Positions 15,329 to 63,655 of a DNA stretch of 64,000 bases are shown piece by piece (the first letter of the stretch is position 1; each line of letters starts with the position of its first letter). The stretch comes from a virus. The stretch is taken from positions 9,358-73,357 of the IMG/VR virus record IMGVR_UViG_3300045141_000130; one strand, written 5' to 3'. Below the pieces are notes generated by a model that saw nothing but the letters and a program-made list of their open reading frames with translations, ran no database searches and was not told the origin of the DNA. The position numbers and the translations under genes were made by a program.

Positions 15329-15789
15329 GCTTCACCTTCCGGATCTGGGTGGTCGTCTGTGACGAGGTGCGGCACCCGGACCGGTGGTTCGGCCCGGGGG
15401 TTGTCGACCTCGTACCGCCGCGCCCGAACGAAGGCGGCGAACTGCCGGTCGTCCTCCTCCTGTCGTTTGACCGCGGTCTGACTGGCCAACAAGGCCTCGG
15501 CTGCCTCGACTCGCGCAAGCACCTTGGCGACGACGGTCAGCACCGCATCACGGATCATCCCGTCGCCGATGACCGTCTCGTCGGCGCCTGGCTTGTAGCC
15601 TTCATCGTTGGCAATCGCATCAGCCGCCTTTGCCCATGCCCCCTCCCAGCCGGAGGTGGAGCAGATGCGCCAGATGTTGTCCTCCACGAAGCCCAGCACG
15701 CCGTCATCCTGTTCGGCCGCAACGCAGGCGACAATGCGCATCCGCAGATCCCAGTCGCCCACCATGGCGACGATGTCGGAGTAACTCAT
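15325..15789 (-). CDS. Conserved actinophage protein following the tail fibre (fibre-assembly candidate)
   Basis: True start MSYSDIVAM (ATGA overlap). Pattern MRIVACVAAE...PGADETVIGDGMIRDAV. Confidence 0.65.
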   Translation of the reverse strand: MSYSDIVAMVGDWDLRMRIVACVAAEQDDGVLGFVEDNIWRICSTSGWEGAWAKAADAIANDEGYKPGADETVIGDGMIRDAVLTVVAKVLARVEAAEALLASQTAVKRQEEDDRQFAAFVRARRYEVDNPRAEPPVRVPHLVTDDHPDPEGEA

Positions 15790-24600: not shown

Positions 24601-25961
24601 TAGTACCAGGTCGATCCGCTCGGTCCGGCCGGGCCGGTCGTGCCGGTGGCACCTGCCGGGCCCTGCGGCCCGGCACCACCCGTCGTGCCGGGCGGGCCCT
24701 GGATCCCCTGACTGCCGGTCGGCCCGGTCGGGCCGGTCGGGCCCGGGTCGCCCTTCGTGCCGGTGCCAGCCGGGCCGATGTCGCCCTGTGGTCCCTGCGA
24801 GCCAGCCGGGCCGACAGGCCCGAGCGGTCCCTGGTCGCCGGTCGGCCCTGCGGCGCCCGTCGCACCGGTGGTGCCTGCCGGGCCGACCGCGCCCGCGTTG
24901 CCCTGCGCGCCGGGGGGGCCGATGGCGCCGGTGGCGCCGGTGGGGCCGGTGCTGCCCTGCGGGCCGGTCGGTCCTGCCGGTCCGGTCGCCCCCGGCGGGC
25001 CGACGATGACGCCCGCGTCCACCCACTTGGTGCCGTCCCACACCCACAGGTGGCCGGTGTCGACGGTGATGTAGGCGACGCCCGTCGAGGTGGCGTCCAG
25101 CCCGGCGGGCAGCGACGCCTGGTTGGGCACCGAACCCTTGATGTTGACACCGGTGCCGGGCGCACCGGTAGCCCCGGTCGGACCCTGCAGGCCGGTCGGC
25201 CCGGCAGGGCCCTGCACACCGGGATCGCCACGAGGGCCCTGGGTGCCGACACTGCCGGTGGCGCCCTGCGGACCTTGGGCCCCGGTCTGCCCGGTGGTGC
25301 CGGGCGGCCCGGCCGGTCCCTGGACGCCCGTCCCGGTGGCGCCGGTATTGCCCTGCGGCCCCTGGGCTCCGGTGCTACCGGTCGGCCCGGCAGGACCGGT
25401 CGCACCCGGAGGCCCGAGTGGGCCGACCGGACCTTGCGAGCCGGTCGGCCCGGCAGGACCTGTCACGCCCGGAGGGCCGGGCACCGGGGCGACGACCCGC
25501 GAGACCTGCATCAGCGTGGCGGGCGCCGGGACCGTGCCCTGCTGGGTGACGGTGCCGGTGTAACGGCTCATACCCGCGGCACCGGCCGTCACCACCGTCG
25601 CCGCGGTGATCACCATGACGAAGCCCTCGCGGACCGGGTCACGCACCACCAGGTACTCGCCGACCTGGGCGTCGGCGCTCCACATCACGCCGTGGAAGTC
25701 GGTGTGGTGCAGATAGACGTCGACGACGGAGTTGAGGGGGGCGTTGCTCGGCACCACGCCGACCTGGCCCGTCGCGGGCGCCTGATTGTTTGCGACGTAG
25801 CCCCACTGGCCGGACTCGACGGTGTTGCCGGGAGGGCCGATGGGGCCGTTCGGGCCCTGCAGGTTACCGGCCAGTACGGGGTTGTTGGCCGAGTCCAACG
25901 GATTGATCGCGTAGCCCAGTGCACTGCGCATCGGGCCGATCAGTGTGGGCGCCGCCATCAC
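21630..25961 (-). CDS. Collagen-like tail fibre protein
   Basis: 1443 aa with extensive Gly-X-Y repeats, interrupted by GSxWxxG..[13 protein letters not shown] modules. C1q/TNF-like beta C-terminus. Confidence 0.85.
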
Positions 25962-39185: not shown

Positions 39186-39722
39186 CTACCCCTCGCGCTC
39201 CTTCGCAGCAGCCTGCAACTGCTTGACGTACTCGACCGGGTCCGCACTGATCACCAGCGTCTCGCGGGTGATGACCGTGTCGCCGTCCGTCAGCCGCTGC
39301 ACCCGCTCCAGCTGCTGCAAGGTGCGCAGCAACACCGCGGCTGCCTTCTCGTCATGGCCCTTGGTGCCCAACTCCCACCACTCGTTGAGGATCACCTCGT
39401 AGCGGTCCACCTGCATCTGCAGGGCCTCCGCCAGGTGGGTGACCGAGGCGTTGCGGGCCGCCTTCTGCAGGTAGGTGGACACCGCCATGGCCGCCGAGTT
39501 GCCGCTGCCGTAGCCGGTCTTCTTCGCCACCTCCGGCCAGGCCACCCCCGCCATGCGCAGCTTGTAGGCCTCGAACGGGGCGTCGAACGGCGCGTCGCCG
39601 TTCAGGCCCGCCATCTTGTCGCGGTCCGCGTCGCTGATCTCCCGGCCCTTCGCCGAGATCGCCACCGGTCCCACCGTGGCGATCGGCTCCACGCCCCGCT
39701 TCCCGGCGCCTACCCGAGCCAT
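39186..39722 (-). CDS. HTH protein, terminase small subunit-like
   Basis: Start MARVGAG. AYKLRMAGVAWPEVAKKTGY HTH, followed by QVDRYEVIL..W..G.D.KAAAVLLR..LERVQRL. Confidence 0.55.
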   Translation of the reverse strand: MARVGAGKRGVEPIATVGPVAISAKGREISDADRDKMAGLNGDAPFDAPFEAYKLRMAGVAWPEVAKKTGYGSGNSAAMAVSTYLQKAARNASVTHLAEALQMQVDRYEVILNEWWELGTKGHDEKAAAVLLRTLQQLERVQRLTDGDTVITRETLVISADPVEYVKQLQAAAKEREG

Positions 39723-40252
39723 CTGTCCACCAGGTCGGTGATCCGCACGCCGGTGGCGATCTGGAGGCGCATCTTCTCCCGCTGCTTGCCGCTGGTGCCG
39801 CCCCACACCCCGTAGCGCATGTCGTGCTCCAAGGCGTACGTCAGGCACTCCAGGTCCACCGGGCACACGGCGCACACCCGGCGGGCCGTCTCCACCGCCA
39901 CGATCAGGTCCTCCGGCGCCTGCCGGTCCTCCGTCCCGAAGAACAGCGGCTCCGACAGGTCCAGCGGCAACTTGCGGCACAACGCCCGGCCATGCCAGGA
40001 CGCCTGGGAGTACCGGGACCGTGGGGCCGGAGGGTCCGCGTCAGGAAGGTCCGGCAGGTCGGCCGCTGTATCGACACTCCCAGGCGTCGACCAGTGACGG
40101 TATCGGATCGTCCACACCCCGAGCGCGATCTGCACCCGGTCCCCGGGGCTGTCACCCTCGGGTGGTGCCGACAGCCATCGCATGTCGACCGACACGTCAA
40201 GCACCGGACCCGGGTGGAATGCGACAGGGTCCGCGCCGAGGGTGGCGAGCAT
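39710..40252 (-). CDS. whiB: WhiB family transcription factor (N-terminally extended)
   Basis: WHGRALC..LFF..ARRVCAVCPVDLECL..YGVWGGTS: four Cys plus GVWGG. Confidence 0.9.
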   Translation of the reverse strand: MLATLGADPVAFHPGPVLDVSVDMRWLSAPPEGDSPGDRVQIALGVWTIRYRHWSTPGSVDTAADLPDLPDADPPAPRSRYSQASWHGRALCRKLPLDLSEPLFFGTEDRQAPEDLIVAVETARRVCAVCPVDLECLTYALEHDMRYGVWGGTSGKQREKMRLQIATGVRITDLVDRWLG

Positions 40253-41850: not shown

Positions 41851-41990
41851 GACTTGGCGTGGCACGGCACGGCTGGGCTTGGCCTGGCGTGGCGTGGCCG
41901 GGCAAGCCATGGCTTGGCAAGGCATGGTTTGGCTGGGTCCGGCCTGGCAAGGCACGGCGCGGCAAGGTAAGGGTCCCTCGCAAGGGGGAC
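41851..41990 (+). repeat. GGY-NN pentamer array 1 (24 units) plus GCAA-loop hairpin; putative guide RNA
   Basis: GACTT GGCGT GGCAC GGCAC GGCTG...GGTAA GG, then GTCCCTC-GCAA-GGGGGAC. Confidence 0.92.
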
Positions 41991-46502: not shown

Positions 46503-46619
46503 GGGGTCTGCGATTTTTTGCGTTTCCGGGGAAAAGATGATCTTGAACCCTCCGATTGGTGTCGGAGGGTCGATTCATGCTGTCCGGAACCACCGGCAGC
46601 ACCCGAAAGGAGGGCCGCT

Positions 46620-47975
46620 GTGACAACAGCGAGTCCCGAGCGCATCGGAAATGCGCACACCGCAGTAGCGCGAGGTGCCGAGTTCGGCGACATCCTCGCG
46701 TTGCTCAACAAGCAGCAGGCCAGGAAGGTCGACATCGTCATTCCTGGCAGCAAACTGCTCGTCCGGGACGGCATGCTCGTCGTCGCCGACGACGTCGTCG
46801 ACATGAGCGACGAAGGGGTGACCCGGGTCGGCGGCGAGTATTGGCCCACCACCTGGTTCGACGCCCACGTCGCCGAACGGTTGGACATTCCTGTTGCCTA
46901 TCTGCGCCGCCTGCGCAACGGCAGGGAGATCGTCGGCACCAGGGGTCGCAGCCGCACCCTCGGCCCGCGACTGGACCTGTACGACAGCAACGTCAACGGG
47001 TTGTTCCGCGGCAACGACGACGTCCCGCCGGACCTGCGGAACTTCTACGCCCGGCTGCTCGTCCCCGACGACCAGGACACCAACGGCATCGCCTACGCGC
47101 TGATGTCCTCCAAGTACTGGAGGCTGGACAACTACGACGCGATCATGGCCACCCTGTCCGGCATCCGCAAGGCCGGGATCGACCCGCTGTCGTTGCACAT
47201 CTACGGCGACCTGTCGGAGACGAAGCTGTACCTGCACGTCCACGCGCCGCAGGTGCTCACCGCCGCACCCGAACTGCTGCGCAACTACCGCAGCCCGTTC
47301 GACATCCAGGGCGAGGCAAGCAAACGCCAGGTTCCGGCCTACACGCTGGAGCAGAGGGTGGCCATGGGCCGCCAGTGGCGGGAGACCCACCGGCTGGACG
47401 AACACATCCAGCCCGGCTCCGAACCGCTCGTCCACTCCGGTTTCCTGATCACCAACTCGGAGATCGGGCAGGGCCGCTGGTCCATCCAGAAGGAGATCGT
47501 CTTCCTGGCGTGCACCAACGGGATGACCTTGACGGCGGGCCGTTTCGAGCGGCGGCACGTCGGCAGCGACCAGGAGGAGGGCCAGGTCGAATGGTCGGCG
47601 GAAACCCGTGACGCCGAGTTGCAGTGGATCGTCTCCTCGACCGCCGACATCGTGGCCGATGCGCTCAACCCGGAATCCCTGGAGAACACCGTCACCGCCC
47701 TGGAGCAGAAGGCGGGGCGCACCGTGGACGACCCGCGACGCACCATCGCGGTCGTCGCCCAGAAGCACCTGTTCAACAAGGACGAGGAGGAGGCGATCCT
47801 CCGCCACTTCGAGTTGGGTCAGGCCTTCACCAGTGCCGGTGTGGCGCAGGCCATCTCGTCCGTCGCCCAGATGTACGAGGACCCGGACCGGGCGCACAAG
47901 CTGACCGACGCCGCCATCCCCGCGATGGAACTCGTCCACTCCCTGAGAAGTACCGGGAGTCGGGCATCCCTCTGA
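46620..47975 (+). CDS. DUF932-family protein
   Basis: GTG after AAGGAGGG. AERLDIPVAYLRRL, ALMSSKYWRLDN, GFLITNSEIGQG, FLACTNGM, ERRHVG. Confidence 0.78.
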   Translation: MTTASPERIGNAHTAVARGAEFGDILALLNKQQARKVDIVIPGSKLLVRDGMLVVADDVVDMSDEGVTRVGGEYWPTTWFDAHVAERLDIPVAYLRRLRNGREIVGTRGRSRTLGPRLDLYDSNVNGLFRGNDDVPPDLRNFYARLLVPDDQDTNGIAYALMSSKYWRLDNYDAIMATLSGIRKAGIDPLSLHIYGDLSETKLYLHVHAPQVLTAAPELLRNYRSPFDIQGEASKRQVPAYTLEQRVAMGRQWRETHRLDEHIQPGSEPLVHSGFLITNSEIGQGRWSIQKEIVFLACTNGMTLTAGRFERRHVGSDQEEGQVEWSAETRDAELQWIVSSTADIVADALNPESLENTVTALEQKAGRTVDDPRRTIAVVAQKHLFNKDEEEAILRHFELGQAFTSAGVAQAISSVAQMYEDPDRAHKLTDAAIPAMELVHSLRSTGSRASL

Positions 47976-48356
47976 GACCTGGCAAGGCCGGGAGAGGCCG
48001 GGCGAGGCATGGCTAGCTTTGGCACGCAAGGGCGAGGCTTGGCTTGGCTAGGCGTGGCAAGGCGTGGCTAGGCGGGGAATGGCAAGGCGAGGTATGGAAT
48101 GCCGAGGCGGTGCATGGCCGGGCTAGGCCAGGTTCGGCGCGGTATGGCTCGGCAAGGCATGGCGAGGCTCGGTTGGGTCGGCCATGGCGAGGCAAGGCTA
48201 GGCGAGGCGCGGTGTGGCAAGGCGGGGTTCGGCAAGGTCAGGTTCGGCGTGCTCCGGTTTGGTATGGCCAGGTCGGGCTAGGCACGGTCGGGTCCGGTTC
48301 GGCGGGCCTGGGCATGGTATGGGCTCCCCGTAAGTCCCTCATTTGGGCCGGGGAGC
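47976..48356 (+). repeat. GGY-NN pentamer array 2 (69 units) plus UAAGU-bulged hairpin; putative guide RNA
   Basis: GACCT GGCAA GGCCG...GGCAT GGTAT GG in unbroken 5-nt register 47976-48320. Hairpin 48323-48356. Confidence 0.93.
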
Positions 48357-48391
48357 AAACAACAAATCCCTTGAGAGGAAAGGATTTTCGC

Positions 48392-48802
48392 ATGACAGGA
48401 GGACCATCAGACGGGGCGTACGAAGTCCTGAACACGATGCTTCACGACATGCTTCACAGCCCGGGGGCGCAGGCCACGTTCAACATGGACACGCCGATGG
48501 CGACACTCATCGACACGTTCGATCTGGCCTTGCCGCCGGACTCCGACGAGAACTTCACCTGCGATCTGTGCGACCAGGTACACCGGGAGGGCCTGGACCG
48601 CATCGTCACCGCATTCGAGCCTGGCGAGCCACCCACCGACGGCAGCCCCGGGTACGTCAAGATGATCGCCGCCGCGGGCAAGAGCCCCACAGATCTGGCC
48701 ATGGAGAAACTCGACCGACCGAGGGTGATCCTGGTCCTGTACTCGTGCCGCAACTGCTCGCTGGAGATCCAGCAGGGGATGGACCGCCAGGAAACCTTCT
48801 GA
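48392..48802 (+). CDS. Zn-binding hypothetical protein
   Basis: Start MTGGPSD after GAGGAAAGGA. CDLC...CRNC. Confidence 0.65.
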   Translation: MTGGPSDGAYEVLNTMLHDMLHSPGAQATFNMDTPMATLIDTFDLALPPDSDENFTCDLCDQVHREGLDRIVTAFEPGEPPTDGSPGYVKMIAAAGKSPTDLAMEKLDRPRVILVLYSCRNCSLEIQQGMDRQETF

Positions 48803-49226
48803 GACGTGCTGTGGCATGGCGTGACTCGGTGGGGCGAGGCGGGGCATGCTTTGGCGCGGCGAGGCGGGGCTAGGCGTGGCCAGGCACGGCGCGGTTCGGC
48901 TCGGCGGGGCGAGGCGAGACATGGCAGGCCAAGGCAGGGCACGGTGCGGTTCGGCTGGCCATGGCTTGGTGTTGGCACGGCTGGGCTCGGCAGGGAATGG
49001 CTAGGCCTGGTTTGGTGCGGCCGGGAGTGGCTCGGCTAGGCAAGGTCGGGTTAGGCGTGGCTCGGCGTGGCAAGCCTTGGCGCGGCGCGGTGTGATCAGG
49101 TTGGGTGTGCCGCGGTTTGGCTTGGTCGGGTTAGGCGCGGCGTGGCATGACTTGGCTCGGTGTGGCTCGGCATGGAAGGCCAGGGCACGGTTTGGGTTCT
49201 CCGTAAGTCCCTTCGGGCCGGAGAAC
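48803..49226 (+). repeat. GGY-NN pentamer array 3 (78 units, one 6-nt unit) plus UAAGU-bulged hairpin; putative guide RNA
   Basis: GACGT GCTGT GGCAT...GGCAC GGTTT GG. Hairpin GTTCTCCG...CGGAGAAC at 49196-49226. Confidence 0.93.
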
Positions 49227-49280
49227 AAAGGGGGATTGGGGGGGGCGTATACAACCTCGAAACTCTTTGGGAGAACAAGA

Positions 49281-50339
49281 ATGACGAGTACGGAAACACA
49301 GATACGTGCAGTGTCTGACGCACCGTTCGCAATGACGCCGCATTTGTTGCGGATGCTGCGCGAGCGGCCTGTCGGGGTCCAGCGGATCCTGCGCAGGACC
49401 GACACCGGGGAGTTGAGGGCGTTCCTCGACCCCACCGCCGCAGACCAGGGCTTCTGGACCGCCCTCCCCGTCTGGCGTTCGGCGGAATGGCGCTACGACG
49501 ACAGCCGCTGGCTGGCCAGCACCGGCAGCCTGTCGTCGCCGGAGAACCTGGTGGACAACCTCGGCTGGTTCGACGTCCCGATCGTCTGGGCCATCACCGA
49601 GACCCCGTACTTCGCGGAGTTGCTCGCGGCCCGGTCGGACGACACGGTGCTGGTGATGGGTGACCCGCGGGACGGCGAACTGCGGTGCTACAAGGAGCGG
49701 AACTGGGACGAGTACCCCGCCCAGAGCGGCTGGCAGGCGTGGCCGACCGTCCGCGATCCCCTCAACCGGTCCTACGGCCCGGATCTCAACTGGCTGACCC
49801 ACAACTTCGGCGCCGTCTCCCTGCAGCAGGTCAAGGACGCCGGTTTCATCAAGGTGTGGGAGAAGGCCGAGGAGAACCCCATCCTCGTCGAGGTCAACCC
49901 GGAGGTGAACCGGCTGCAACTGCGCATCACCGACCTGGAGTCCACCCTGGCCACTCTGCGCACCCAGAACCAGACGCAGCAGCGGCGCCTGGAGCAGATG
50001 TCCAACGACCACGAGCGGTTCAAGGAGTTGGTGTCCTCCACCGCCACCAAGTACGCCCGGCGGCACGACTGGTGCTCCGTCGTCGACGAGGCGCTGGAGG
50101 AGATGGGACTGGAGAGGGAGCCGGTCAGCTTCAGCGGGGTCATCAGCGTCCGCATCAACTTCACCGCCAACCGCACCGACGGTGAACGTGGCACCCCGAA
50201 CGCCCGTGACGTCAACCGCTGGCTGTACGGCGAGGATGACGTGCGTGAAGCCATCGGCGAGAACCTCAGCCTCGACGAGGATTACGCCGGTGACTTCGAG
50301 ATCGACAGCTACAGCTTCGAGGTCATCTCCACCTCGTAG
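49281..50339 (+). CDS. Hypothetical protein (Trp-rich N-terminus, coiled coil)
   Basis: Start MTSTETQIR after GGGAGA. 352 aa. Confidence 0.72.
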   Translation: MTSTETQIRAVSDAPFAMTPHLLRMLRERPVGVQRILRRTDTGELRAFLDPTAADQGFWTALPVWRSAEWRYDDSRWLASTGSLSSPENLVDNLGWFDVPIVWAITETPYFAELLAARSDDTVLVMGDPRDGELRCYKERNWDEYPAQSGWQAWPTVRDPLNRSYGPDLNWLTHNFGAVSLQQVKDAGFIKVWEKAEENPILVEVNPEVNRLQLRITDLESTLATLRTQNQTQQRRLEQMSNDHERFKELVSSTATKYARRHDWCSVVDEALEEMGLEREPVSFSGVISVRINFTANRTDGERGTPNARDVNRWLYGEDDVREAIGENLSLDEDYAGDFEIDSYSFEVISTS

Positions 50340-50420
50340 TGCGCTACGCAGTAGCAGCCCCCCTGCCACCCGGCAGGGGGGCTTCCTTGTCCGCAAAAAC
50401 ACCTGAAAGGTGGTTCTGCT

Positions 50421-51041
50421 GTGCCAGACGTCGACGACGAAGACCCGTCACGACACACGTACGAGAGCCGGGAGATGGCCGAACGGGAACTGGCGGGCTG
50501 GTTCCCGCCGTCGGTCCCCGAGGAGGCCAAACCGGAACTCATGCGCATCGCCATCGTCGAACACCCCGGGCAGGAACCCCTGCGCACCCTGTGGAGCATC
50601 CACCCGGAGTTCGTCTACCTGACGAACCCCGAACTGTGGATGCTCGTCACCTGGATCACCGGTGACGAGCGTTCCCGCGGCAGCCTCCGCGGGATACCGC
50701 TGCTACTGGTCCAGCTGGCAGCGCTGCGCGATCACCATGTCGCGCTCATCGGGCAACTCAACGAACTGACATCCAACCAGGAGGCAAACACCATGACCGA
50801 ACCCATCAACGTCGACCCCAGCACCGTGATCCATCAGGGAACGATCAGCATCGCCATCGACTTCCGGGCAACCTTGGCGCCCACCGAGTTCCTGGAGGGC
50901 GACGACATCGAGGAGGCGCTGAACAAGTTCGCCGACCTGGAGGCGATCAAGAACGCCATCAAGGCCGCTCCCCGGCTCGACGGCATCTCCATCGAGAGCA
51001 TCTCGTTCGGTGCTCAGGTGGCCAGCTTTTTGACCAGCTGA
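50421..51041 (+). CDS. Hypothetical protein, with a strong internal in-frame start at 50793
   Basis: GAAAGGTGG before GTG 50421. AGGAGG before ATG 50793. Confidence 0.55.
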   Translation: MPDVDDEDPSRHTYESREMAERELAGWFPPSVPEEAKPELMRIAIVEHPGQEPLRTLWSIHPEFVYLTNPELWMLVTWITGDERSRGSLRGIPLLLVQLAALRDHHVALIGQLNELTSNQEANTMTEPINVDPSTVIHQGTISIAIDFRATLAPTEFLEGDDIEEALNKFADLEAIKNAIKAAPRLDGISIESISFGAQVASFLTS

Positions 51042-51047
51042 CCTTCT

Positions 51048-51218
51048 GACGTGGCCAGGGCTTGGCAAGCCGTGGCGGGGTCGGGTCGGCCGTGGCGTGG
51101 CTAGACAGGGCCGGGTTTGGTGTGGCTCGGAATGGTGCGGCGAGCCAGGGTTCGGCTCGGCATGGCATGGCCGGGTTCGGTGAGGTATGGGGCCCCCCAG
51201 CCTTCGGGCTGGGGGGCC
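51048..51218 (+). repeat. GGY-NN pentamer array 4 (~28 units) plus cUUCGg hairpin; putative guide RNA
   Basis: GACGTG GCCAG GGCTT GGCAA...GGTGA GGTAT GG, then GGCCCCCCAGCC-TTCG-GGCTGGGGGGCC. Confidence 0.93.
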
Positions 51219-51240
51219 ATCCTCGTCGCAGGGGGGTTGC

Positions 51241-51429
51241 GGCGAGGCTGGCTGAGGCGCGGCGCGGCGGGGCAGGGTCCGGCTTGGCCAGGCATGGCTG
51301 GGCGAGGTTGGGTGTGGGGTGGTTAGCCGAGGTCCGGCGCGGCTGGCTGGGGTTCGGCGGGGTGGGGCTTGGTCTGGCGTGCCCAGGCACGGTGAGGTAT
51401 GGGGCCCGCCACGGGGGGTGTGGCGAGCC
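51241..51429 (+). repeat. GGY-NN pentamer array 5 (32 units) plus hairpin; putative guide RNA
   Basis: GGCGA GGCTG...GGTGA GGTAT GG, then GGCCCGCCAC...GTGGCGAGCC. Confidence 0.92.
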
Positions 51430-51431
51430 AT

Positions 51432-51789
51432 GGATAGGACTGGCAAGGCTGGACCTGGCGGGGCAAGGTCGGACAGGGCAAGGCGTGGCCTGGTGCGGCT
51501 GGGTTAGGCACGGCCTGGTGCGGCTAGCTTCGGCGGGGCGTTGGCTCGGCATGGCCTGCCGTGGAAAGGTTGGCCGAGGCAAGGCGTGGCAAGGCGCGGC
51601 GAGGTGAGGCCTGGCAGGGCAGGGCGCGGCGAGGCGGGGCAGGCCACGGCGGGGCGAGGTGTGGTCAGGTTCAGGTGGGGTCTGGGTCTGGCGTGGCAGC
51701 GGCTGGGCCAGGCCCGGTTTGGCCAGGCGCGGCGTGGTATGGGCCGCCCGTAAGTCCTTAGCCGCCGGATGCGGCTAAGGCCGGGCGGC
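51432..51789 (+). repeat. GGY-NN pentamer array 6 (~61 units, four 6-nt units) plus UAAGU-bulged hairpin; putative guide RNA
   Basis: GGATA GGACT GGCAA...GGCGT GGTAT GG. Hairpin 51743-51789. Confidence 0.9.
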
Positions 51790-51814: not shown

Positions 51815-51937
51815 GGCTAGGCATGCCGAGCACAGGCATGGCCTGGATAGGTGCGGCGCGCTGCGGTTGGCCGTGGCTCGGCAGGGAAAGGCTTGGCAAG
51901 GCGAGGTATGGGTCCCCAAGGAGAAGCCTTGCGGGAC
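51815..51937 (+). repeat. GGY-NN pentamer array 7 (19 units) plus hairpin; putative guide RNA
   Basis: GGCTA GGCAT...GGCGA GGTAT GG, then GTCCCCAAGG-AGAAG-CCTTGCGGGAC. Directly upstream of the RAMP gene. Confidence 0.9.
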
Positions 51938-51956: not shown

Positions 51957-52640
51957 GTGGTTACACGGAGCCGCAGTACCGCAGTGAAGCCGGACCCGGA
52001 GCCGAACGCTCTGGACGGTGATGTGAGCGACTCGGGCAACGCCACGTACGAGGCCAACCGGCCCTTCCGGGCGGCCGTCGAGATCACCGGCGACTCGGTG
52101 ATCCTGTTCCACCGTTGGCAGTCCGACGCGGTCGACGCGAAGGCCGCTGCCGCCAAGGGGTCCCGAGCGAAGAAGACCGATGATGTTGATTCTTACGTTT
52201 GGGAGAACGAGAACGGGGTGCTGTGCCTGCCCGGCGAGTACCTGCGTTGCTCGCTCACCAACCCGCAGAACGGTGCCGCGAAGTACCTTCAGGACCCGCG
52301 GTCCCCCCGCAAGTCGGCCTTGGATTTGTTCAAGGCTGGTGTTGTCAGCCTCACCGACCTGGCCCCGATCACCAAGGCGGACGGCACACCGGCCGAGGGC
52401 TGGGACCACCTGGACCGCCGCCGCGTGGTGGTGCAGAGGTCGGGCGTCACCCGCTCCCGGCCCGCATTCGCCACCGGCTGGAAGGCGGAGATCATTTTGA
52501 TGTCTCTGCTGCCTCAATACATCAGCCCGTCATTGCTGCGGACGACGCTGTCCGACGCTGGGAAACTCGTTGGGGTGGGCGACTTCCGGCCCACCTTCGG
52601 CCGGTTCAGCGTCACGAAGTTTGAGGTCCTCCAGGACTAG
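51957..52640 (+). CDS. Stand-alone RAMP/Cas7-like RNA-binding protein (putative effector of the GGY-NN arrays)
   Basis: GTG after AAAGGAG, 227 aa. N-terminal strand AAVEITGDSVILFH. GVLCLPGEYLRCSL resembles the Cas7-group IPGSSxKG motif. Basic thumb-like DRRRVVVQRSGVTRSRP. C-terminal Gly-rich loop AGKLVGVGDFRPTFGRFSV. Confidence 0.78.
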   Translation: MVTRSRSTAVKPDPEPNALDGDVSDSGNATYEANRPFRAAVEITGDSVILFHRWQSDAVDAKAAAAKGSRAKKTDDVDSYVWENENGVLCLPGEYLRCSLTNPQNGAAKYLQDPRSPRKSALDLFKAGVVSLTDLAPITKADGTPAEGWDHLDRRRVVVQRSGVTRSRPAFATGWKAEIILMSLLPQYISPSLLRTTLSDAGKLVGVGDFRPTFGRFSVTKFEVLQD

Positions 52641-52901
52641 GCGAGGCTGGGCTGGGCATGGCGCGGCTGGGCGCGGCAAGGCCTGGCTAGGAATGGCAAG
52701 CCGGGGCGCGGCTAGGCGAGGCTGGGCGGGGTCAGGTGGGGCTAGGTTCGGCGTGGCATGGCGAGACATGGCTCGGCTGGGCAAGGCGTGCCTTGGCAAG
52801 GCGCGGCGCGGCTGGGAAAGGCAAGGTCGGGTGGGGCCTGGCGAGGTCCGGCCGGGTATGCCGAGGCTCGGTGAGGTATGGGTTTCACCCTCGGGTGAGA
52901 C
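52635..52901 (+). repeat. GGY-NN pentamer array 8 (49 units) plus hairpin; putative guide RNA
   Basis: GACTA GGCGA (overlapping the TAG stop)...GGTGA GGTAT GG, then GTTTCACC-CTCG-GGTGAGAC. Confidence 0.93.
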
Positions 52902-57253: not shown

Positions 57254-60200
57254 TTAGTGCTTTATCGGGTTGACGAGCCGCTTCAGCTTCGCCTTCTTCT
57301 GCAGTTCCAGCGCCATCTTGTTGGCATCGGAGGCCACCACCTTGATCTGTGCGCCCGCGAACGACACCGTGCTGTCGTTCTTCTGCACCAGCTGACGCAG
57401 CAGGCCCTCCTCCACCTTCAGCGCGGGCACGATCGCCGCCGCCAGGGACTTGGTCAGGATGCTGGCCAACTGCTGCGCCGTGGCCATGGCGATGGTCTGG
57501 GCGGCCGGAGTGGTGGCGGCGTGGGCTGCGGGTTTTGCGGCAGCGGGATGGGCAGCCGCTGGATGGGCCGCCGGGTGGGCAGCCGGATGAGCGGGCCCTG
57601 CGTTCTTCTTCTTGGCGGCGTCCTCGGCCTCCTTCTTCTTGTTGGCCACCTCGGCGTCGTGCTGGCGCTTCGCCGCCACGGCCGCGTCGTGCTTCTTCTG
57701 GTTCGCCTCCTCGGCGTCGTGGCGCTCCTTGGCCGCCTTGTTGTCCGCGGCCTTGCGTGCCGCCAACTCGGCCATCTCCTTGCGGCGCTTCTCGTCTTCG
57801 AGGTACCGCTGCTTGGCCTCGTTCTCCTTCGCCTTCTTCTTCGCCGCGTCCTCGGCCGCCCGCTTGGCCGCCTTCTCCTTTTCGTCCTTGCGCTGCCGCA
57901 TCTCGTTCCCGGCCTCGGAGAACTGGCCGCCGACGAGGCCGCCCACGGCGTTCGACATCAGGTTGCCCATGAACTTCTCGCCGGTCATGTTCAGCGGCAG
58001 GATCAGTTCGTGGCCCGCCTCGCCGACGGTCGCCACATGCTGGGCCATGGTGATGCCGCCGGTGGCGTGGCCGGGACCGTGACCGGTGGTCCCCCCGGAC
58101 GGGCCTGATGCGTAGTGGGCGGGGTCCTGGTCGTGACTGGTGGCACTACCGGGCTGGCCGTAGTTGACGCCGCCCGCGGCGGGCTGCGGCACCTGGGCGG
58201 CGGCGTTGCCGATCGCCTGGGCGGCGGTGTTGATCCAGTTGATGTAGTCCTGCACGGCCTGCGGTCCGTACTCCGCCAGCTGACCCTTCGCCTGGTCGGC
58301 CATTTGGATGAGGCTGGAGTTCAGGTTGCCGGTCACCGACTGGAAGGAGTTCTTCAGATCCTCCCCGGCCCGTGTGAGGGTCAGGTTGTACTGGGTCTCC
58401 ATCTGCGACATGGCGATGCCGTGGTCGCGGGCCGCCTGCGATTGGGCGGTCGAGAAGTCCTGCTGCATGTCGGACAGGCTGCGGGTCTCGTCGGCCTTGG
58501 CGTTCTTGCGGGCGAGCAGGAAGTCGGCCTGCTGGTCTGACATTGACCGGTGGAAGTCGTCGACGGCGTTCTTCATCTGGGTGGAGAAGTCCACCGCCTG
58601 GTCGGCCAGGGAGGTCTTCAGGTCGTCCTTGGCCCGCTTCGACGTCTTGGCGAAGTCGGCCTCCCCGTCCTTCAGACTGGTCTGCAGGTCGGTCCACTGG
58701 TCCTTCAGGGACTGCTTGAAGTCGGCGCTCTCCCGGGCCGTGGTCTTCCGGAAGTCGGATGCCTCGTTGGCCATCGCCACCGCGTGGTCATGTTCGGACC
58801 GGCCCAGGTTCTTGGACTGGTCCTGCTGGGCCCGGGTGGTCTCCTTGACGAAGTCCGCGTACTGCTCCTTCATCGACAGGGTCAGGTCGGCGGTCGCGTC
58901 CTTGACGCTCTGCTGGTAGTCCTGCCAGGCGCGGGTCTGGGACTTCTGGAAGTCGGCCAGCTGACCGGCGTAGTCCAGGTTGCCGAGGTTCTGGGTCAGC
59001 TTCTGGGTGTCGGCCACCCTCGTCTTGACCTGGGCGTTGATCTGCCCGACCGTGTTCGGGTTGCGCTGCATCGACTTGATCAGAGCGTCCAGTTCCTGGG
59101 CGTTGGCCGGGTTGGCCAGGTCGAGGGTCTGGATGGTCTGGAGGGACACGCCCAGCGCCTTGGCCTTGTCCAGGTTCTTCAGCTGCTTCTCCAGGGCGGC
59201 GTTCTGTCGGGACAGGTTGCGCAGCATCCCACCGGCCCCCACGGTGGCCTGGCGCTGGATGCGCTGCATCGGGTTGTAGATGGCCTGGGCGGTCTTGGCA
59301 GCCTGCCGCTCCATCTGGGTGTTGAAGTCTTCCTGGGCCCGGTTGCGGTTCTTGTAGTAGTCGCGCTCCGACCGTTCCTGGCTGATCTGGAAGTGCTCCA
59401 ACTCCCGGGACTGGCTGGTGTGGAAGTCCTGGGAGGCCCGCAGCTGCTGGGTGTTGAAGTCCTCGACAGAGCGGGAGCGGTCCAGCTGGTACTGCGTCTC
59501 CTCCCGTTGGCGGCTGGTGTTGAAGTCCTCCCGGGACCGCGCCTCCTGCTTGTCGAAGTCGCGGGTCGCCCGGTTCGTCTGCGTGTGGTAGTCGCGCATC
59601 TGCCGGGTCCGCTGGGTGGTGAAGTCCTCCTCCGCCCGGGCCTGGGACTTGTTGGCGTCGCGGATCTCCCGGGTGCGGCTCAACTCGTACTGGTTGGTGT
59701 TGCGCTGCTGGGAGATCCCGAAGTCGCGGTAGGACCGGCCGCGCTGCGTGTAGTACTGCTGATCGCTGCGTTCCTGGCTGGTCTGGAAGTCCCGTTCGGT
59801 GCGTGACCTCTGGCGTCCGTACGACAGGGCCTGGTCGGCCATCTGGTTGTTGTAGGACTGGTCGGCCTGCTTGACGCTGGTCTGGTAGTCCTGGTAGGCG
59901 CGGGTCTGCTGGATGCCGAAGTCCTTGACCGCCTGGATCTTCTGGTGCGCCTGCTGGGTCAGGTCGCCCTCGCCCTGGGCCACCTGGATCACCGCGCCTG
60001 GCACCGCCGCGGCCTGCTCCGTCGAGGCACCCGGTGCGGTCCCGGCGGCGATGGCTGCTTTGCCTGCGGAGATCGAGTCGATCGCGTTCTGCAGGGGCGA
60101 GAAGTTGACCTGCGCGATCTGCTGCAGCTGCCCGGCGGCCTCAGCCGCCGCGTTGGACACATCCTTCAACGTCCCGGACAGGTCCTTGGACATGCCCAGG

Positions 60201-63200
60201 ATCAGCTGCTGGGCCTGCGCCGCCTGGTTGGGCCCGGCCCCGGCCTGCTTCATGGCGGTGCCGAGGACCGCGGCGACGGCCGCCTGCTGGACGCCCGGCT
60301 GGCCCGTCTGCGTCACCGCGGTTGCGATGCTCCCCATCGGGGCCAGGGTCTGTCCGAGCCGACCACCCATCTTGGACAGCTGTGCCAGGTCCGTCTGCTG
60401 GGGGGACGTGGGCGACGGCAGCGGAGCGTTCTGGGGTGCCGTGACCCCGGCGATCAGCTGTTCCTTCGTCATGTTGTGGTCTTGCAACCACTTCTTGCCG
60501 CTGTCGGAGTTCGCAACAGCGTTCGCCCAGGCAACCGTCCCCTGCTGGCCGGTGTCGAACAGGGACTGCACCATGCCGCCGGTGGCCTGCGACCCGGGGG
60601 TCCTGTACTTCTCGTTCAGGTTGTAGGAGTACCGCTTGTCATTGGGGGCCAACGGGTTGATGAGTTCCGCCGTGCCCTGCTGGGTGGAGTATCCGGCCAG
60701 CGCCTGCTGCAGTTGGTCACCCTGAAGTCCGAACTCGGTCGCCAGGGAGCCCGCGCCCGTCTGGATCCGGTTTCGCTGCGTCGTGTCCCGCCCGGCAGTG
60801 GCCTTTCCCATCATTCGCAGGGTGTTGATCATCTGCGCTGGTGAGGCCTGGTCGGTGACGCCGACGGTGCCCGCCTCGATGGCGGCCGTACCGCCGGTGA
60901 GCAGGCTCTTGAAGATGTCCGGGTTGCCCCCCTGCCCGGCGGCGGCGGCGCCGAACAGGGAGAAGTCCGGCTTGGAGGCCGCAACCCCACCCTTCTGACC
61001 CATCTCGTTGCCGAACTCGGTGAGGATCCCCTGGGCCAGCTTCTTGCGACTGTCGGCATTGCCGATCCCGGTCTTGTCGACGGCCGCAAGAACGTCGGTG
61101 CTGATCTGCTTGCCCTGCGTCCCGGACATGTCCGGGTTCTGGATGCCCAAGCCCTGCAGGTAGGTCAGGGTGTTCTTCTTGATCGCATCCTCGTTGCCAC
61201 CGGCCGACGCTACGGCCGTCCCCAGGCTGGCGTCGACCATCTTGTAGTCGCCCCTGCGGGCAGCGGTGACGTCCTCCGGTTGCAGCTGCAGGGACGTCTT
61301 CAACGGCACGTTCGCCATCGCGGCCAGCTTGTCGGCGGCTATGGCGGCCGAATCACCCAGCTTGGCCAGGTTGGAGGACGTCTGATCCAGCGCCTGGTCG
61401 TATTTGGCGGCGGGGTTGGCGGCCTGCATCGTGCCCGCGTCCATCGCAACGTCCTGCTGATGCCTCTTCACCGAGGACTGGATGGCACCTACGACCCCCA
61501 TTCCAGCCATTGCGCCCACCCCGATGAGTGGGTTCTCGGCGAGGAGGCCCATCGCACCGCCGATGCCCTTGGACAGCCACGACGCACCGGTGGCCGCGCC
61601 CTGCACGCCCCGCAGCAAGCCCTTCCCGGCGACCCCCATAGGAGTCGTCGGCAGCTTGCGAGCACCGGCACCGGCCAGGTCGGCGACGGTTCCGGTGAGC
61701 GTCTCGGCCATCTCGGGTCCGGCCCGGGCTAGGCCGCCGCGAAGCTGCTTCGCGTTCGACTTGCCCCCGGAGACGTCGACCCCGGCGGCCTTGAGTTCCC
61801 CCGTTCGGTCCAGGCCCTCGGTGTTGCGTTCCCGCATCGGGATCTGGTTTGACTGCAGCACCCAGTTCGCAACCCCGGCAACCTTGTCGCCGAGGCCGCT
61901 GCCCGAGATCGTGGGCATCTTGAACCCGGAAGTTGCGGCCGCGGCACCCGCCGGAGCCGCCTTCGTCGCGGCGGCCGTCGCGGCGGTCGCTGCGGCAGCG
62001 GCTGTTGCCGCATTGGTCGCCGCGGCGGCCGGAGGCTGGCCTCCCTGGCCTTGCTGCCATCCAGCGCCCCAGGCCCCGCCGACGCCGCCGCCGAACAGCT
62101 TGCCCAGGAACCCGCCGAAGCTGCCCCCGCCGCTGGTGCCGCCCATCAGGTTGGGGTTGCGGCGGCCCAGGTCGAATGCGGCAGCGGTGTGCCCGGACAG
62201 CTTGCCGCCCACGAACCGCCTGCCGTACGGGTCGGCCATCAGGGCGTCGGCCTCGTCCATACCGCCTGCGACAGCAGCGGACACGCTCTGCCCGGCGCCG
62301 ATCGCCTGGCGCCAGGCGGCCTTCTTGCCGAAGGCGTACTTGGCAGTCCCTGCGGCGGCGGCCAACCCTGCGTGGGCCAGCCCGAACGCAGCCGGTACGG
62401 CAGCCACGCCGACTGCGGTGGCGGCAATGCCAGGAATCGGGCCGAGCGCCTTCAAGAAGCTGTCGAGCCCACCGACCGCCTTGCCGAACAGGTCGACCAG
62501 GGTTGTCAGCGGCTTGAGCAGGGGGTCGCCGATGATCTGCGCCAGGTCGGTGAACTTGTTGCGCACGCTGGTCAGCGAGTCGGTGAGCCCCGACATGGCC
62601 GCCTTCGATGCGGTGTCCAGTTGGTTGCCACCCTGGTAGGCGCCCTGCCCGACACCCATCAGCTGTTGGATGCCGCCGGTCTGCGCCATCTTCTGGATGG
62701 CGCCCTGCACCCGGATGCCACCCAGGTCCTGGCTGAAGACGTCGGCCCGCGCCCCGCCCTTGGCGATCTGGTTGAAGATCCCGCCGGTGGCCTGCAGTGC
62801 TGACATCTGTCTGAACTGCTGCTGGCTGACACCGAGGAAGCCGGAGTACTTGCTTACGTCGCCGCCGGAGGTCTTCAGCTGCTGGATGGTGGACAGCAGG
62901 GAACTGAAGGCGTTCGCGGCGACCTGACCGTCCGCACCGGCCTTCTGGAACGCTGCCGACAGGGCCAACGTCTGGCTCTCGGCGACGCCCGCCTGGCGGG
63001 CGAAGGGTGCGATGGCGGAGGCGAAGTCGGTGATCGACTGGGCGGAGACACCGGCCGTCTTGGACAGCACCAGGAGTTCGTTGTTGAACTTCTCGATCTT
63101 CGAGGTGTCCAGGTTGCCCATCTGCTTGGCCAGCGTGATGCCGCTGGACGCAAGGGAGGTGGAGTCCTCGCCGGTGGCCGCGCCCATCTTGGTGTAGCTG

Positions 63201-63655
63201 GCGGTCAGCCGGGTGATGTCGGGGGCCTTGACGACCCCCATGTTGCTGATGGCGGTGGCCAGCTGGACGACCTGTTCGCGCCACACGGGGAACTGGTTGA
63301 AGACGCCGGTGAGGCCCGCCTTCAGCTGGTTCATGTTGGTGCCGGTGACGGTGGCGGTCGCCGACAGGGTGCCCAGCTGGGACTCGAAGCGGGCCGCCAC
63401 GCCCACCGCGGCACCGAGTGAGGCGAAGTCCCCCACCGAGAAGTGCATCAGCGTCTTCCCGGCCCGCTTCGCCAGCCCCTCGGCGTGCTGCGCGGCGACG
63501 CCCAGCGCGGAGGCCAGCTGCTGGGCCTGGGCGGTGGCCTGCTGCATCCCCTGGGTGAAGCCGGAGACGTCGGCGTTCAGGTCGACGGTGACGGCGCGGG
63601 AGACCTGGCCGCCCATGCCGGGGTCGGCGAAGGACTGCGAGAAGGGGGAACTCAT
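57254..63655 (-). CDS. Tape measure protein
   Basis: 2133 aa, Ala/Gly-rich. N-terminal VTVDLNADVSGF, TP901-like core, long 11-residue RxxxDF periodic helix. Follows the tail chaperone. Confidence 0.92.
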   Translation of the reverse strand: MSSPFSQSFADPGMGGQVSRAVTVDLNADVSGFTQGMQQATAQAQQLASALGVAAQHAEGLAKRAGKTLMHFSVGDFASLGAAVGVAARFESQLGTLSATATVTGTNMNQLKAGLTGVFNQFPVWREQVVQLATAISNMGVVKAPDITRLTASYTKMGAATGEDSTSLASSGITLAKQMGNLDTSKIEKFNNELLVLSKTAGVSAQSITDFASAIAPFARQAGVAESQTLALSAAFQKAGADGQVAANAFSSLLSTIQQLKTSGGDVSKYSGFLGVSQQQFRQMSALQATGGIFNQIAKGGARADVFSQDLGGIRVQGAIQKMAQTGGIQQLMGVGQGAYQGGNQLDTASKAAMSGLTDSLTSVRNKFTDLAQIIGDPLLKPLTTLVDLFGKAVGGLDSFLKALGPIPGIAATAVGVAAVPAAFGLAHAGLAAAAGTAKYAFGKKAAWRQAIGAGQSVSAAVAGGMDEADALMADPYGRRFVGGKLSGHTAAAFDLGRRNPNLMGGTSGGGSFGGFLGKLFGGGVGGAWGAGWQQGQGGQPPAAAATNAATAAAAATAATAAATKAAPAGAAAATSGFKMPTISGSGLGDKVAGVANWVLQSNQIPMRERNTEGLDRTGELKAAGVDVSGGKSNAKQLRGGLARAGPEMAETLTGTVADLAGAGARKLPTTPMGVAGKGLLRGVQGAATGASWLSKGIGGAMGLLAENPLIGVGAMAGMGVVGAIQSSVKRHQQDVAMDAGTMQAANPAAKYDQALDQTSSNLAKLGDSAAIAADKLAAMANVPLKTSLQLQPEDVTAARRGDYKMVDASLGTAVASAGGNEDAIKKNTLTYLQGLGIQNPDMSGTQGKQISTDVLAAVDKTGIGNADSRKKLAQGILTEFGNEMGQKGGVAASKPDFSLFGAAAAGQGGNPDIFKSLLTGGTAAIEAGTVGVTDQASPAQMINTLRMMGKATAGRDTTQRNRIQTGAGSLATEFGLQGDQLQQALAGYSTQQGTAELINPLAPNDKRYSYNLNEKYRTPGSQATGGMVQSLFDTGQQGTVAWANAVANSDSGKKWLQDHNMTKEQLIAGVTAPQNAPLPSPTSPQQTDLAQLSKMGGRLGQTLAPMGSIATAVTQTGQPGVQQAAVAAVLGTAMKQAGAGPNQAAQAQQLILGMSKDLSGTLKDVSNAAAEAAGQLQQIAQVNFSPLQNAIDSISAGKAAIAAGTAPGASTEQAAAVPGAVIQVAQGEGDLTQQAHQKIQAVKDFGIQQTRAYQDYQTSVKQADQSYNNQMADQALSYGRQRSRTERDFQTSQERSDQQYYTQRGRSYRDFGISQQRNTNQYELSRTREIRDANKSQARAEEDFTTQRTRQMRDYHTQTNRATRDFDKQEARSREDFNTSRQREETQYQLDRSRSVEDFNTQQLRASQDFHTSQSRELEHFQISQERSERDYYKNRNRAQEDFNTQMERQAAKTAQAIYNPMQRIQRQATVGAGGMLRNLSRQNAALEKQLKNLDKAKALGVSLQTIQTLDLANPANAQELDALIKSMQRNPNTVGQINAQVKTRVADTQKLTQNLGNLDYAGQLADFQKSQTRAWQDYQQSVKDATADLTLSMKEQYADFVKETTRAQQDQSKNLGRSEHDHAVAMANEASDFRKTTARESADFKQSLKDQWTDLQTSLKDGEADFAKTSKRAKDDLKTSLADQAVDFSTQMKNAVDDFHRSMSDQQADFLLARKNAKADETRSLSDMQQDFSTAQSQAARDHGIAMSQMETQYNLTLTRAGEDLKNSFQSVTGNLNSSLIQMADQAKGQLAEYGPQAVQDYINWINTAAQAIGNAAAQVPQPAAGGVNYGQPGSATSHDQDPAHYASGPSGGTTGHGPGHATGGITMAQHVATVGEAGHELILPLNMTGEKFMGNLMSNAVGGLVGGQFSEAGNEMRQRKDEKEKAAKRAAEDAAKKKAKENEAKQRYLEDEKRRKEMAELAARKAADNKAAKERHDAEEANQKKHDAAVAAKRQHDAEVANKKKEAEDAAKKKNAGPAHPAAHPAAHPAAAHPAAAKPAAHAATTPAAQTIAMATAQQLASILTKSLAAAIVPALKVEEGLLRQLVQKNDSTVSFAGAQIKVVASDANKMALELQKKAKLKRLVNPIKH

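Follow-up and report, generated by a model that had tools for sequence, protein, structure and literature searches.

Pentamer arrays in a soil phage genome

The window analysed here, 64,000 bases long, runs from base 9358 to base 73357 of the IMG/VR record IMGVR_UViG_3300045141_000130, a virus record of 73,357 bases that carries direct terminal repeats. The source is a phage genome from soil, complete at about 73 kb, and the window covers most of it. The record carries siphovirus-type structural and replication genes, together with a gene for a WhiB-like transcription factor (window 39710-40252, minus strand; Pfam E 4.7e-17), and the presence of a WhiB-like gene in a phage fits an actinobacterial host. 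In a search of sequencing runs, near-identical DNA was met in soil metagenome runs only, and none of the runs that match the phage is an RNA run. The window also holds two very long tail-type ORFs on the minus strand, one of 2,133 residues that is tape-measure-like (57254-63655) and one of 1,464 residues (15786-20180), as well as a gene for a collagen-like tail fibre of 1,443 residues (21630-25961).

Between about 41.8 and 52.9 kb there are eight arrays, all on the plus strand, which together comprise 357 parsed pentamers consisting of a GGY triplet and a dinucleotide NN (Table 1). The triplet is a proper GGY in 290 of the 357 units (81%). G stands at position 1 of the pentamer in 98% of the units and at position 2 in 89%, and 92% have a pyrimidine (C or T) at position 3; the two NN positions show a near-even base mix. 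The 3' end has the form GGT[AT][AT]GGG in all eight arrays, and a hairpin follows it directly. The string GGTATGGG has six copies on the plus strand, which are confined to the array ends, and no copy on the minus strand. The arrays vary in length from 19 to 79 units, with one tail apiece, and are scattered across 11 kb, with unrelated ORFs in between.

Table 1. Positions (in the window) of the arrays, the two guide blocks and the adjoining genes
Feature	Position	Strand	Description
Array 1	41853..41990	+	24 units, tail hairpin
Array 2	47979..48356	+	67 units, tail hairpin
ORF of 136 residues	48392..48802	+	between arrays 2 and 3; its stop codon falls within unit 1 of the guide block
Array 3	48798..49196	+	79 units; one +1 register shift near 48973; begins on the upstream ORF's stop codon
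Guide block of array 3, 13 units	48798..48862	+	26/26 match to L140 and L141, in phase
3' end of array 3 (tail/handle)	49189..49226	+	GGTTTGGG, then hairpin
Array 4	51051..51218	+	26 units, tail hairpin
Array 5	51236..51430	+	34 units, tail hairpin
Guide block of array 5, 15 units	51316..51390	+	at the 3' end, just before the tail; spells VY[D/E]PA[C]GSGG[F/L]LV[H/Q]T
Array 6	51441..51789	+	60 units, several register shifts, tail hairpin
Array 7	51815..51937	+	19 units, directly upstream of vipr, tail hairpin
vipr	51957..52640	+	227-residue RAMP protein, between arrays 7 and 8
Array 8	52637..52901	+	48 units, directly downstream of vipr, tail hairpin

A megablast of 47000-51500 against phage records gave no match, and nothing relevant was found with Rfam at E <= 1 across 41-54 kb. 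In consensus scans of 47.8-53.2 kb nothing resembled a promoter, and terminators were as frequent as expected by chance. The sole PHROG match among the neighbouring ORFs is that of a 485-residue ORF (46518-47975) to phrog_1362, whose function is not annotated, with none in Pfam. The 136-residue ORF between arrays 2 and 3 belongs to no Pfam or PHROG family and has no usable atlas match. Two Cys-x-x-Cys pairs are seen in its translation; judging from these, it might be a zinc ribbon and an accessory protein of the locus.

The Vipr protein and the assignment of the locus

VIPR systems were first described in two preprints of 2026 (bioRxiv 10.64898/2026.04.26.720920; bioRxiv 10.64898/2026.04.26.720927). 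As set out in the text of the former, a small RAMP protein, Vipr, coats a vrRNA that is made up of GGY/NN pentamers and has a conserved 3' tail; the NN pairs read double-stranded DNA with one base skipped, usually the wobble base of a codon; and the binding represses transcription, silencing being abolished when GGY is perturbed (bioRxiv 10.64898/2026.04.26.720920). The vrRNAs characterised there have 9-16 repeats adjoining the tail, and the natural targets that are named are satellites, prophages and other VIPRs (bioRxiv 10.64898/2026.04.26.720920).

The phage encodes such a protein, and its gene is flanked by long GGY/NN pentamer arrays. A profile of the Vipr family (38 members) matches the PDB entry 36pp_D, 'SUSP1 Vipr protein', with E 1.7e-42 over 190 of 202 residues; with the single phage sequence the match has E 4.2e-07. 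The AlphaFold2 model of the protein has a pLDDT of 90.8, and a Foldseek search with this model gave Csm3/Cas7 proteins as the best of 95 matches at E <= 0.001. In SUSP1 Vipr the residues described as reading GG are D177, W178 and R179 of the G-loop and R138 of the thumb (bioRxiv 10.64898/2026.04.26.720927). The G-loops align as GDFRPTFGRF in the phage and GDWRPRFGRF in SUSP1, Asp and Arg being kept and Trp replaced by Phe. The thumb Arg is likewise conserved, the Arg of SYRP being aligned with that of RSRP; H17 of SUSP1 lies outside the aligned part. Therefore, considering the profile match to SUSP1 Vipr, the Csm3/Cas7-like fold and the kept GG-reading residues, the locus is a VIPR locus. By analogy, the Vipr of this phage would coat the guide RNA.

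Among the ORFs near the arrays, Pfam, PHROG and the atlas look-ups for the 136- and 206-residue ORFs revealed no accessory vap gene. Some earlier ideas about the arrays, namely a binding site for a TRAP-like RNA-binding ring, two-tier G-quadruplexes and a DNA modification site, were dropped once VIPR was recognised, and so were coding pentapeptide repeats, against which the register shifts and the lack of a consistent frame speak. Five +1 register shifts in array 6 (51441-51745) leave short in-register runs, which may be what a VIPR preprint calls 'staggered arrays' in its text.

Arrays of this type are widespread among viral contigs: a scan for eight GGC triplets at 5-base spacing gave at least 137 matching stretches, on contigs of 42-73% GC (loci L001-L137). 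Vipr has 4,854 homologues at E <= 0.001, and such homologues adjoin the arrays in 51 of the 137 viral loci listed (phmmer), 57 of those loci having short flanks. Among the loci listed, Vipr is the only protein of the phage with real homologues beside arrays elsewhere, and it is the only gene common to the phage and six related loci.

Some of these loci have features of their own. Very long arrays are present among the matches listed; that of L080, for example, extends over about 1,170 bases and that of L043 over about 900. In L002 (580-1260, minus strand), about 15-17 pentamers make up each of five vrRNA-like units in tandem. Between these units stands a conserved tail, some 50 bases long, with GGTATGGG or GGCATGGG at its start, and the units adjoin a Vipr homologue 50% identical to that of the phage (BLASTP, 208 residues). 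Arrays also flank a Vipr homologue of 54% identity on a 40-kb contig (L138) of a bin labelled Patescibacteria; this may be a phage contig that was binned with a bacterial genome.

The putative guide block of array 3

Read in the 5-base register from 48803, array 3 runs gacGT gctGT ggcAT ggcGT gacTC ggtGG ggcGA ggcGG ggcAT gctTT ggcGC ggcGA, and its dinucleotides (upper case) are exactly the 12 that a sequence-only reading of the window had listed. In that reading they were taken as the first 12 NN of the array and as the catalytic motif of NYN/PIN-fold ribonucleases. The string stands and its extent does not, for the true block has 13 units and begins one unit earlier, with tctGA (48798-48802). 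The 13 dinucleotides are thus GA GT GT AT GT TC GG GA GG AT TT GC GA. With one base skipped between them they are the non-wobble bases of the codons for EVVIVSGDGIFAE, and in general the block spells [D/E]VV[I/M]VSG[D/E]G[I/M][F/L]A[D/E]. The additional unit overlaps the stop codon of the upstream ORF and fits the target as a Glu codon, and this marks the limit of the match: neither the next unit upstream of tctGA nor the units after the 13th fit the NYN genes.

The block lies at the 5' end of its 79-unit array, about 66 units from the tail. A proper GGY is present in eight of the 13 units, the exceptions being tct, gac, gct, gac and gct, and the G-N-Y form is kept in four of these five deviant triplets. 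Non-GGY units thus amount to 5/13 in the block, as compared with 11/66 in the rest of array 3.

Matches to the block and their chance expectation

The gapped 12-unit search that had been proposed along with the sequence-only reading gave two exact matches, both in metagenome contigs (L140 and L141), both in genes that match NYN, and both on the coding strand in codon phase. Absence of NYN genes, or matches out of codon phase, had been named there as the outcome that would speak against the reading; two genes match exactly and in phase. Both matches extend to 13 units and 26 of 26 bases, and the matched segment reads ...RF[G/D]EVVIVSGDGIFAE... in the two contigs. The two genes are 47% identical over 86 residues and differ at six of the 13 wobble bases.

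The exact 12-unit pattern has no match in the IMG/VR viral contigs and none in 185,579 species reference genomes. The window itself lacks the pattern even at <=3 mismatches. Within the phage genome and the viral loci no match exceeds 19/24, a value that the shuffled control reaches as well, and self-targeting at an NN match of >=80% is absent. No other viral contig was found to contain these 12 dinucleotides at 5-base spacing, and no near-copy of either guide (the second is described below) was found in the arrays of 143 viral loci. When contigs from four soil runs with the phage were compared with L141, scraps of about 35 bases were obtained, which are informative neither way.

The number of exact matches expected by chance was estimated from codon-prefix frequencies, with an assumed collection size of about 1e12 bases. 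For the window that was named, in-phase chance matches amount to about 0.003 (12 units) or about 0.0004 (13 units). For all 524 window-orientations, in contrast, the summed probability is 3.3e-11 per codon, which corresponds to about 11 chance exact matches in the same number of bases. Therefore, exact matches for arbitrary windows mean little, and the evidential weight of the NYN match derives from the window having been named beforehand and from its agreement with the family consensus at 13 of 13 columns.

The NYN subfamily and its gene neighbourhoods

The gathering cut-off of the Pfam NYN family (PF01936) is 24.2 bits. With 27.2 bits, the 165-residue protein of L141 exceeds it; the match extends over residues 103-152, within which residues 107-119 correspond to the block. 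The same protein matches the PADLOC NYN model with E 8.8e-07. Related proteins from L154 and L153 score 25.0 and 28.3 bits, respectively, and the L140 fragment 21.6 bits, which is below the cut-off. The exactly matching gene in L140 (1439-2014) is split over two reading frames, and is either broken or mis-assembled.

In a protein search, 53 cluster representatives of this subfamily of about 165 residues were obtained. The guide agrees with the majority residue class at all 13 columns of the 53-member alignment, and compatibility with it is complete at all 13 residues in 13 members, extends to >=12 residues in 25 members and to >=10 in all 53. The targeted segment ranks fourth among 153 windows in conservation and overlaps the top three. 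The S, G and D of the SGD motif are invariant in 53 of 53 members; the aspartate is putatively the metal-binding catalytic residue here, as in PIN-like folds. As had been claimed, the block spells a motif of the NYN core: the Pfam match covers it, and it falls where the subfamily is most conserved.

In a sample of 401 genomes of one phylum, NYN homologues were found by protein search in ten, with 23, 22 and 22 of 26 bases matching at the site; no conclusion here depends on the locus L150, which belongs to a genome marked as unpublished. In one genome (G024) the NYN site is the only genome-wide match at <=3 mismatches, and the reversed-pattern control gave 0. One fully guide-compatible member lies on a contig of 1.45 Mb. 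Among 2.9 million viral contigs of IMG/VR there were 45 pattern matches and no confirmed member of the subfamily, and this weakens the reading that the target belongs to a rival phage.

The gene neighbourhoods were compared at four loci. In L154 the NYN gene overlaps, in the same orientation, the start of an N6-methylase gene by 4 bases, and a gene resembling that of a specificity subunit then follows; this set is preceded by a PLD/ZacB-like gene and followed by a second type I system. The next gene in L141, which the NYN gene likewise overlaps, resembles the N-terminus of a type I methylase, and only its N-terminal part is present on the contig. In two of four contexts, clearly in L154 and in part in L141, the NYN gene thus appears to open a methylase/specificity-subunit operon. 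In L153, by comparison, its neighbours are AbiEii-like, RelB-like and PIN genes with no methylase operon, and in L140 the gene is accompanied by a Phd/YefM antitoxin gene and by an ORF weakly similar to specificity subunits and mad5, so that neither locus has a clear methylase operon. Neighbours of the methylase, toxin-antitoxin and Abi types are what make the gene a candidate anti-defence target.

The defence island of L154 (7092-19805, in genome G069) has the order PLD/ZacB-like gene, NYN-methylase-specificity operon, second type I system; hsdM and hsdR of the latter appear to be split into several ORFs.

A second block that spells a methylase motif

All 261 twelve-unit windows of the eight arrays were compared with 143 kb, and then with 283 kb, around the NYN/hsdM loci. 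In the scan of 283 kb, only the NYN block and one further block, in array 5, rose above the shuffled controls. The second block (Table 1) corresponds to motif I of N6-adenine methylases of the HsdM type and is in phase with hsdM. Its best local match is 22-23/24, compared with a maximum of 19 for the shuffled controls, and ten consecutive units are perfect in five of eight hsdM loci. At <=3 mismatches of 30, the 15-unit pattern is matched in seven of 401 genomes (27-28/30, in phase), and the reversed control in none of the 401.

The exact 15-unit methylase pattern has no match in viral contigs, the exact patterns of the 3' blocks of arrays 4 and 8 have none in IMG/VR, and the patterns from the 3' ends of arrays 7 and 8 have none at <=3 mismatches in five genomes. 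For 1,836 windows from the arrays of other phages, compared with the same 283 kb, the real maximum was 21 and the control maximum 22. In these searches, targets were found for two blocks only, of the 357 units.

Interpretation of the guide blocks

The array block and its match are confirmed as observations, and the evidence supports the sequence-only reading with regard to both the type of element and the targeted family. The anti-defence purpose of the block is reasoned from the gene neighbourhoods. The explanation that we favour, with a probability of roughly 0.6, is that the block is a guide segment of a phage-borne VIPR, and that its most likely purpose is the silencing of restriction-like defence operons. 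By analogy with SUSP1, each Vipr protomer would bind one repeat, burying GGY and presenting NN; the Vipr filament would pair with the template strand of the NYN gene, the wobble bases being skipped; and the bound filament would block transcription of the gene. The context suggests restriction-like operons as what would be silenced, because a methylase/specificity operon appears to start with the NYN gene at two loci and because another block corresponds to methylase motif I. Guides aimed at invariant motifs would cover many variants, and synonymous changes would be useless for escape. Several points count against this explanation. A restriction enzyme that is already present could not be removed by transcriptional silencing; five of the 13 units are without GGY; the block is about 66 units from the tail; the published targets are without restriction or methylase genes, in so far as the preprints describe them; and no integrase was found among the 37 phage proteins scanned. 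The same holds for the lack of exact matches in the reference genomes and in IMG/VR, for the restriction of targets to two blocks, for the split gene of L140 and for the neighbourhoods of L140 and L153.

It may be that the guide is genuine and directed against the NYN family, and that the targeted gene resides on a rival mobile element, such as a plasmid, an integrative element or a defence-island cassette, so that its purpose is competition between elements, as in the published VIPR systems, rather than shielding the phage from host restriction. The Phd/YefM antitoxin gene that adjoins the NYN gene in L140 and the RelB-like, PIN and AbiEii-like neighbours in L153 would agree with this; defence islands of such kind are often mobile; and the natural VIPR targets reported so far in the preprint text are all competing mobile elements. 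We consider it unlikely, though the strongest of the alternatives, considering that the NYN subfamily was not found in the 2.9 million viral contigs, that the fully compatible member lies on the 1.45-Mb contig, and that hsdM, to which the second guide is directed, is a standard restriction gene of chromosomes.

The two remaining alternatives are given little credence. If the block were a relic, that is, a former working guide or a copy of the target gene that now decays at the array edge without being loaded by Vipr any more, then the excess of non-GGY units over the rest of array 3, the overlap of the first unit with the stop codon of the upstream ORF and the position furthest from the tail would all be accounted for. 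However, the 26 informative bases are all intact and equal to the family consensus, which is unexpected for a freely drifting sequence, and the deviant triplets mostly keep the G-N-Y form. Moreover, frequent internal degeneracy in vrRNAs, and non-GGY repeats in some VIPR types, are noted in the text of a preprint (bioRxiv 10.64898/2026.04.26.720920). A relic is thus improbable, and a coincidence is held to be slightly more so. The latter would mean that, with about 357 units to be read either way, a window of 12-13 units happened to spell a natural peptide, and that a familiar one was picked out. Such an origin is made conceivable by the chance matches expected when all 524 window-orientations are trawled, and exact matches do occur in only one of the three collections. 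The metagenome collection, however, was tested with the pre-named window only, for which the expectation is the low one derived above. Chance would also give a single sequence at a random place, rather than the consensus of a family in its most conserved stretch. In addition, the block starts at the first unit of the array and has a length within the published range of 9-16 repeats, shuffled guides reach at most 19/24 in the local searches, and the second block independently spells a methylase motif with a control of 0/401.

A silencing guide against defence operons remains the preferred explanation. A more general proposition, put forward tentatively and judged to fall somewhat short of an even chance, is that VIPR serves in some phages as a programmable RNA-guided anti-defence weapon, beyond its use against rival viruses, with long multi-guide arrays directed at invariant catalytic motifs of restriction-type genes, here those of the NYN gene at the head of a methylase operon and of hsdM (motif I); a single guide would then silence a whole family of defence operons whatever their wobble bases. 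If the favoured explanation is true, VIPR would have a new role in gene-level, sequence-programmed counter-defence by a virus. The wobble-skipping code could then be aimed at the consensus motifs of protein families, so that there would be one guide for many targets.

Comparison with known systems

The locus most closely resembles the Type II VIPR of Escherichia phage SUSP1 and of a Pseudomonas fulva prophage, as these are described in the preprint text. In both cases there is a phage-borne Vipr RAMP homologue with a GG-reading G-loop, the gene is flanked by GGY/NN pentamers with a conserved 3' tail for each array, and natural matches follow the NN-skip-one rule, in which the wobble base is passed over, without self-targeting. 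The present locus differs in its organization, with eight arrays set among unrelated ORFs over 11 kb, a tail of the form GGT[AT][AT]GGG followed by a hairpin, and no recognisable vap among the ORFs near the arrays. It also differs in having arrays of 19-79 units with one tail each, in contrast to 9-16 repeats per RNA in the described systems; the two blocks with targets have 13 and 15 units. The long arrays raise the question of whether there are several guides per Vipr filament RNA or a further processing step. Finally, the targets here are conserved NYN and hsdM motifs, whereas the published ones are regulators of satellites or prophages. Restriction, methyltransferase or anti-defence targets are not named in the searched text of the two VIPR preprints.

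The solo and decoy vrRNAs in the conflict between SUSP1 and its satellite, as described in the text of another preprint, are alike in that the guides match the codon periodicity of a conserved segment in all variants and that synonymous mutation gives no escape (bioRxiv 10.64898/2026.10.15.759431). Their target, however, is a satellite recombinase and was tested by infection, whereas the target here is a defence-type family known from sequence.

With the Cas7 (Csm3/Cas7) backbone filaments of class 1 CRISPR-Cas, and with CRISPR interference through binding alone, VIPR shares the RAMP fold, the one protomer per RNA period and the RNA-guided recognition of DNA. The period, however, is 5 bases with 3 buried in VIPR, compared with 6 with 1 flipped in the Cas7 filaments, and the pairing in VIPR is gapped. 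VIPR is, moreover, without the CRISPR repeats, adaptation genes and nuclease of the class 1 systems.

Ocr, ArdA and other anti-restriction proteins of phages and plasmids act on the finished enzyme or effector, and so do the RNA anti-CRISPRs. The end that is proposed for the present locus is the same, namely the disabling of restriction or immunity; VIPR, in contrast, would act on the gene, by sequence-programmed silencing.
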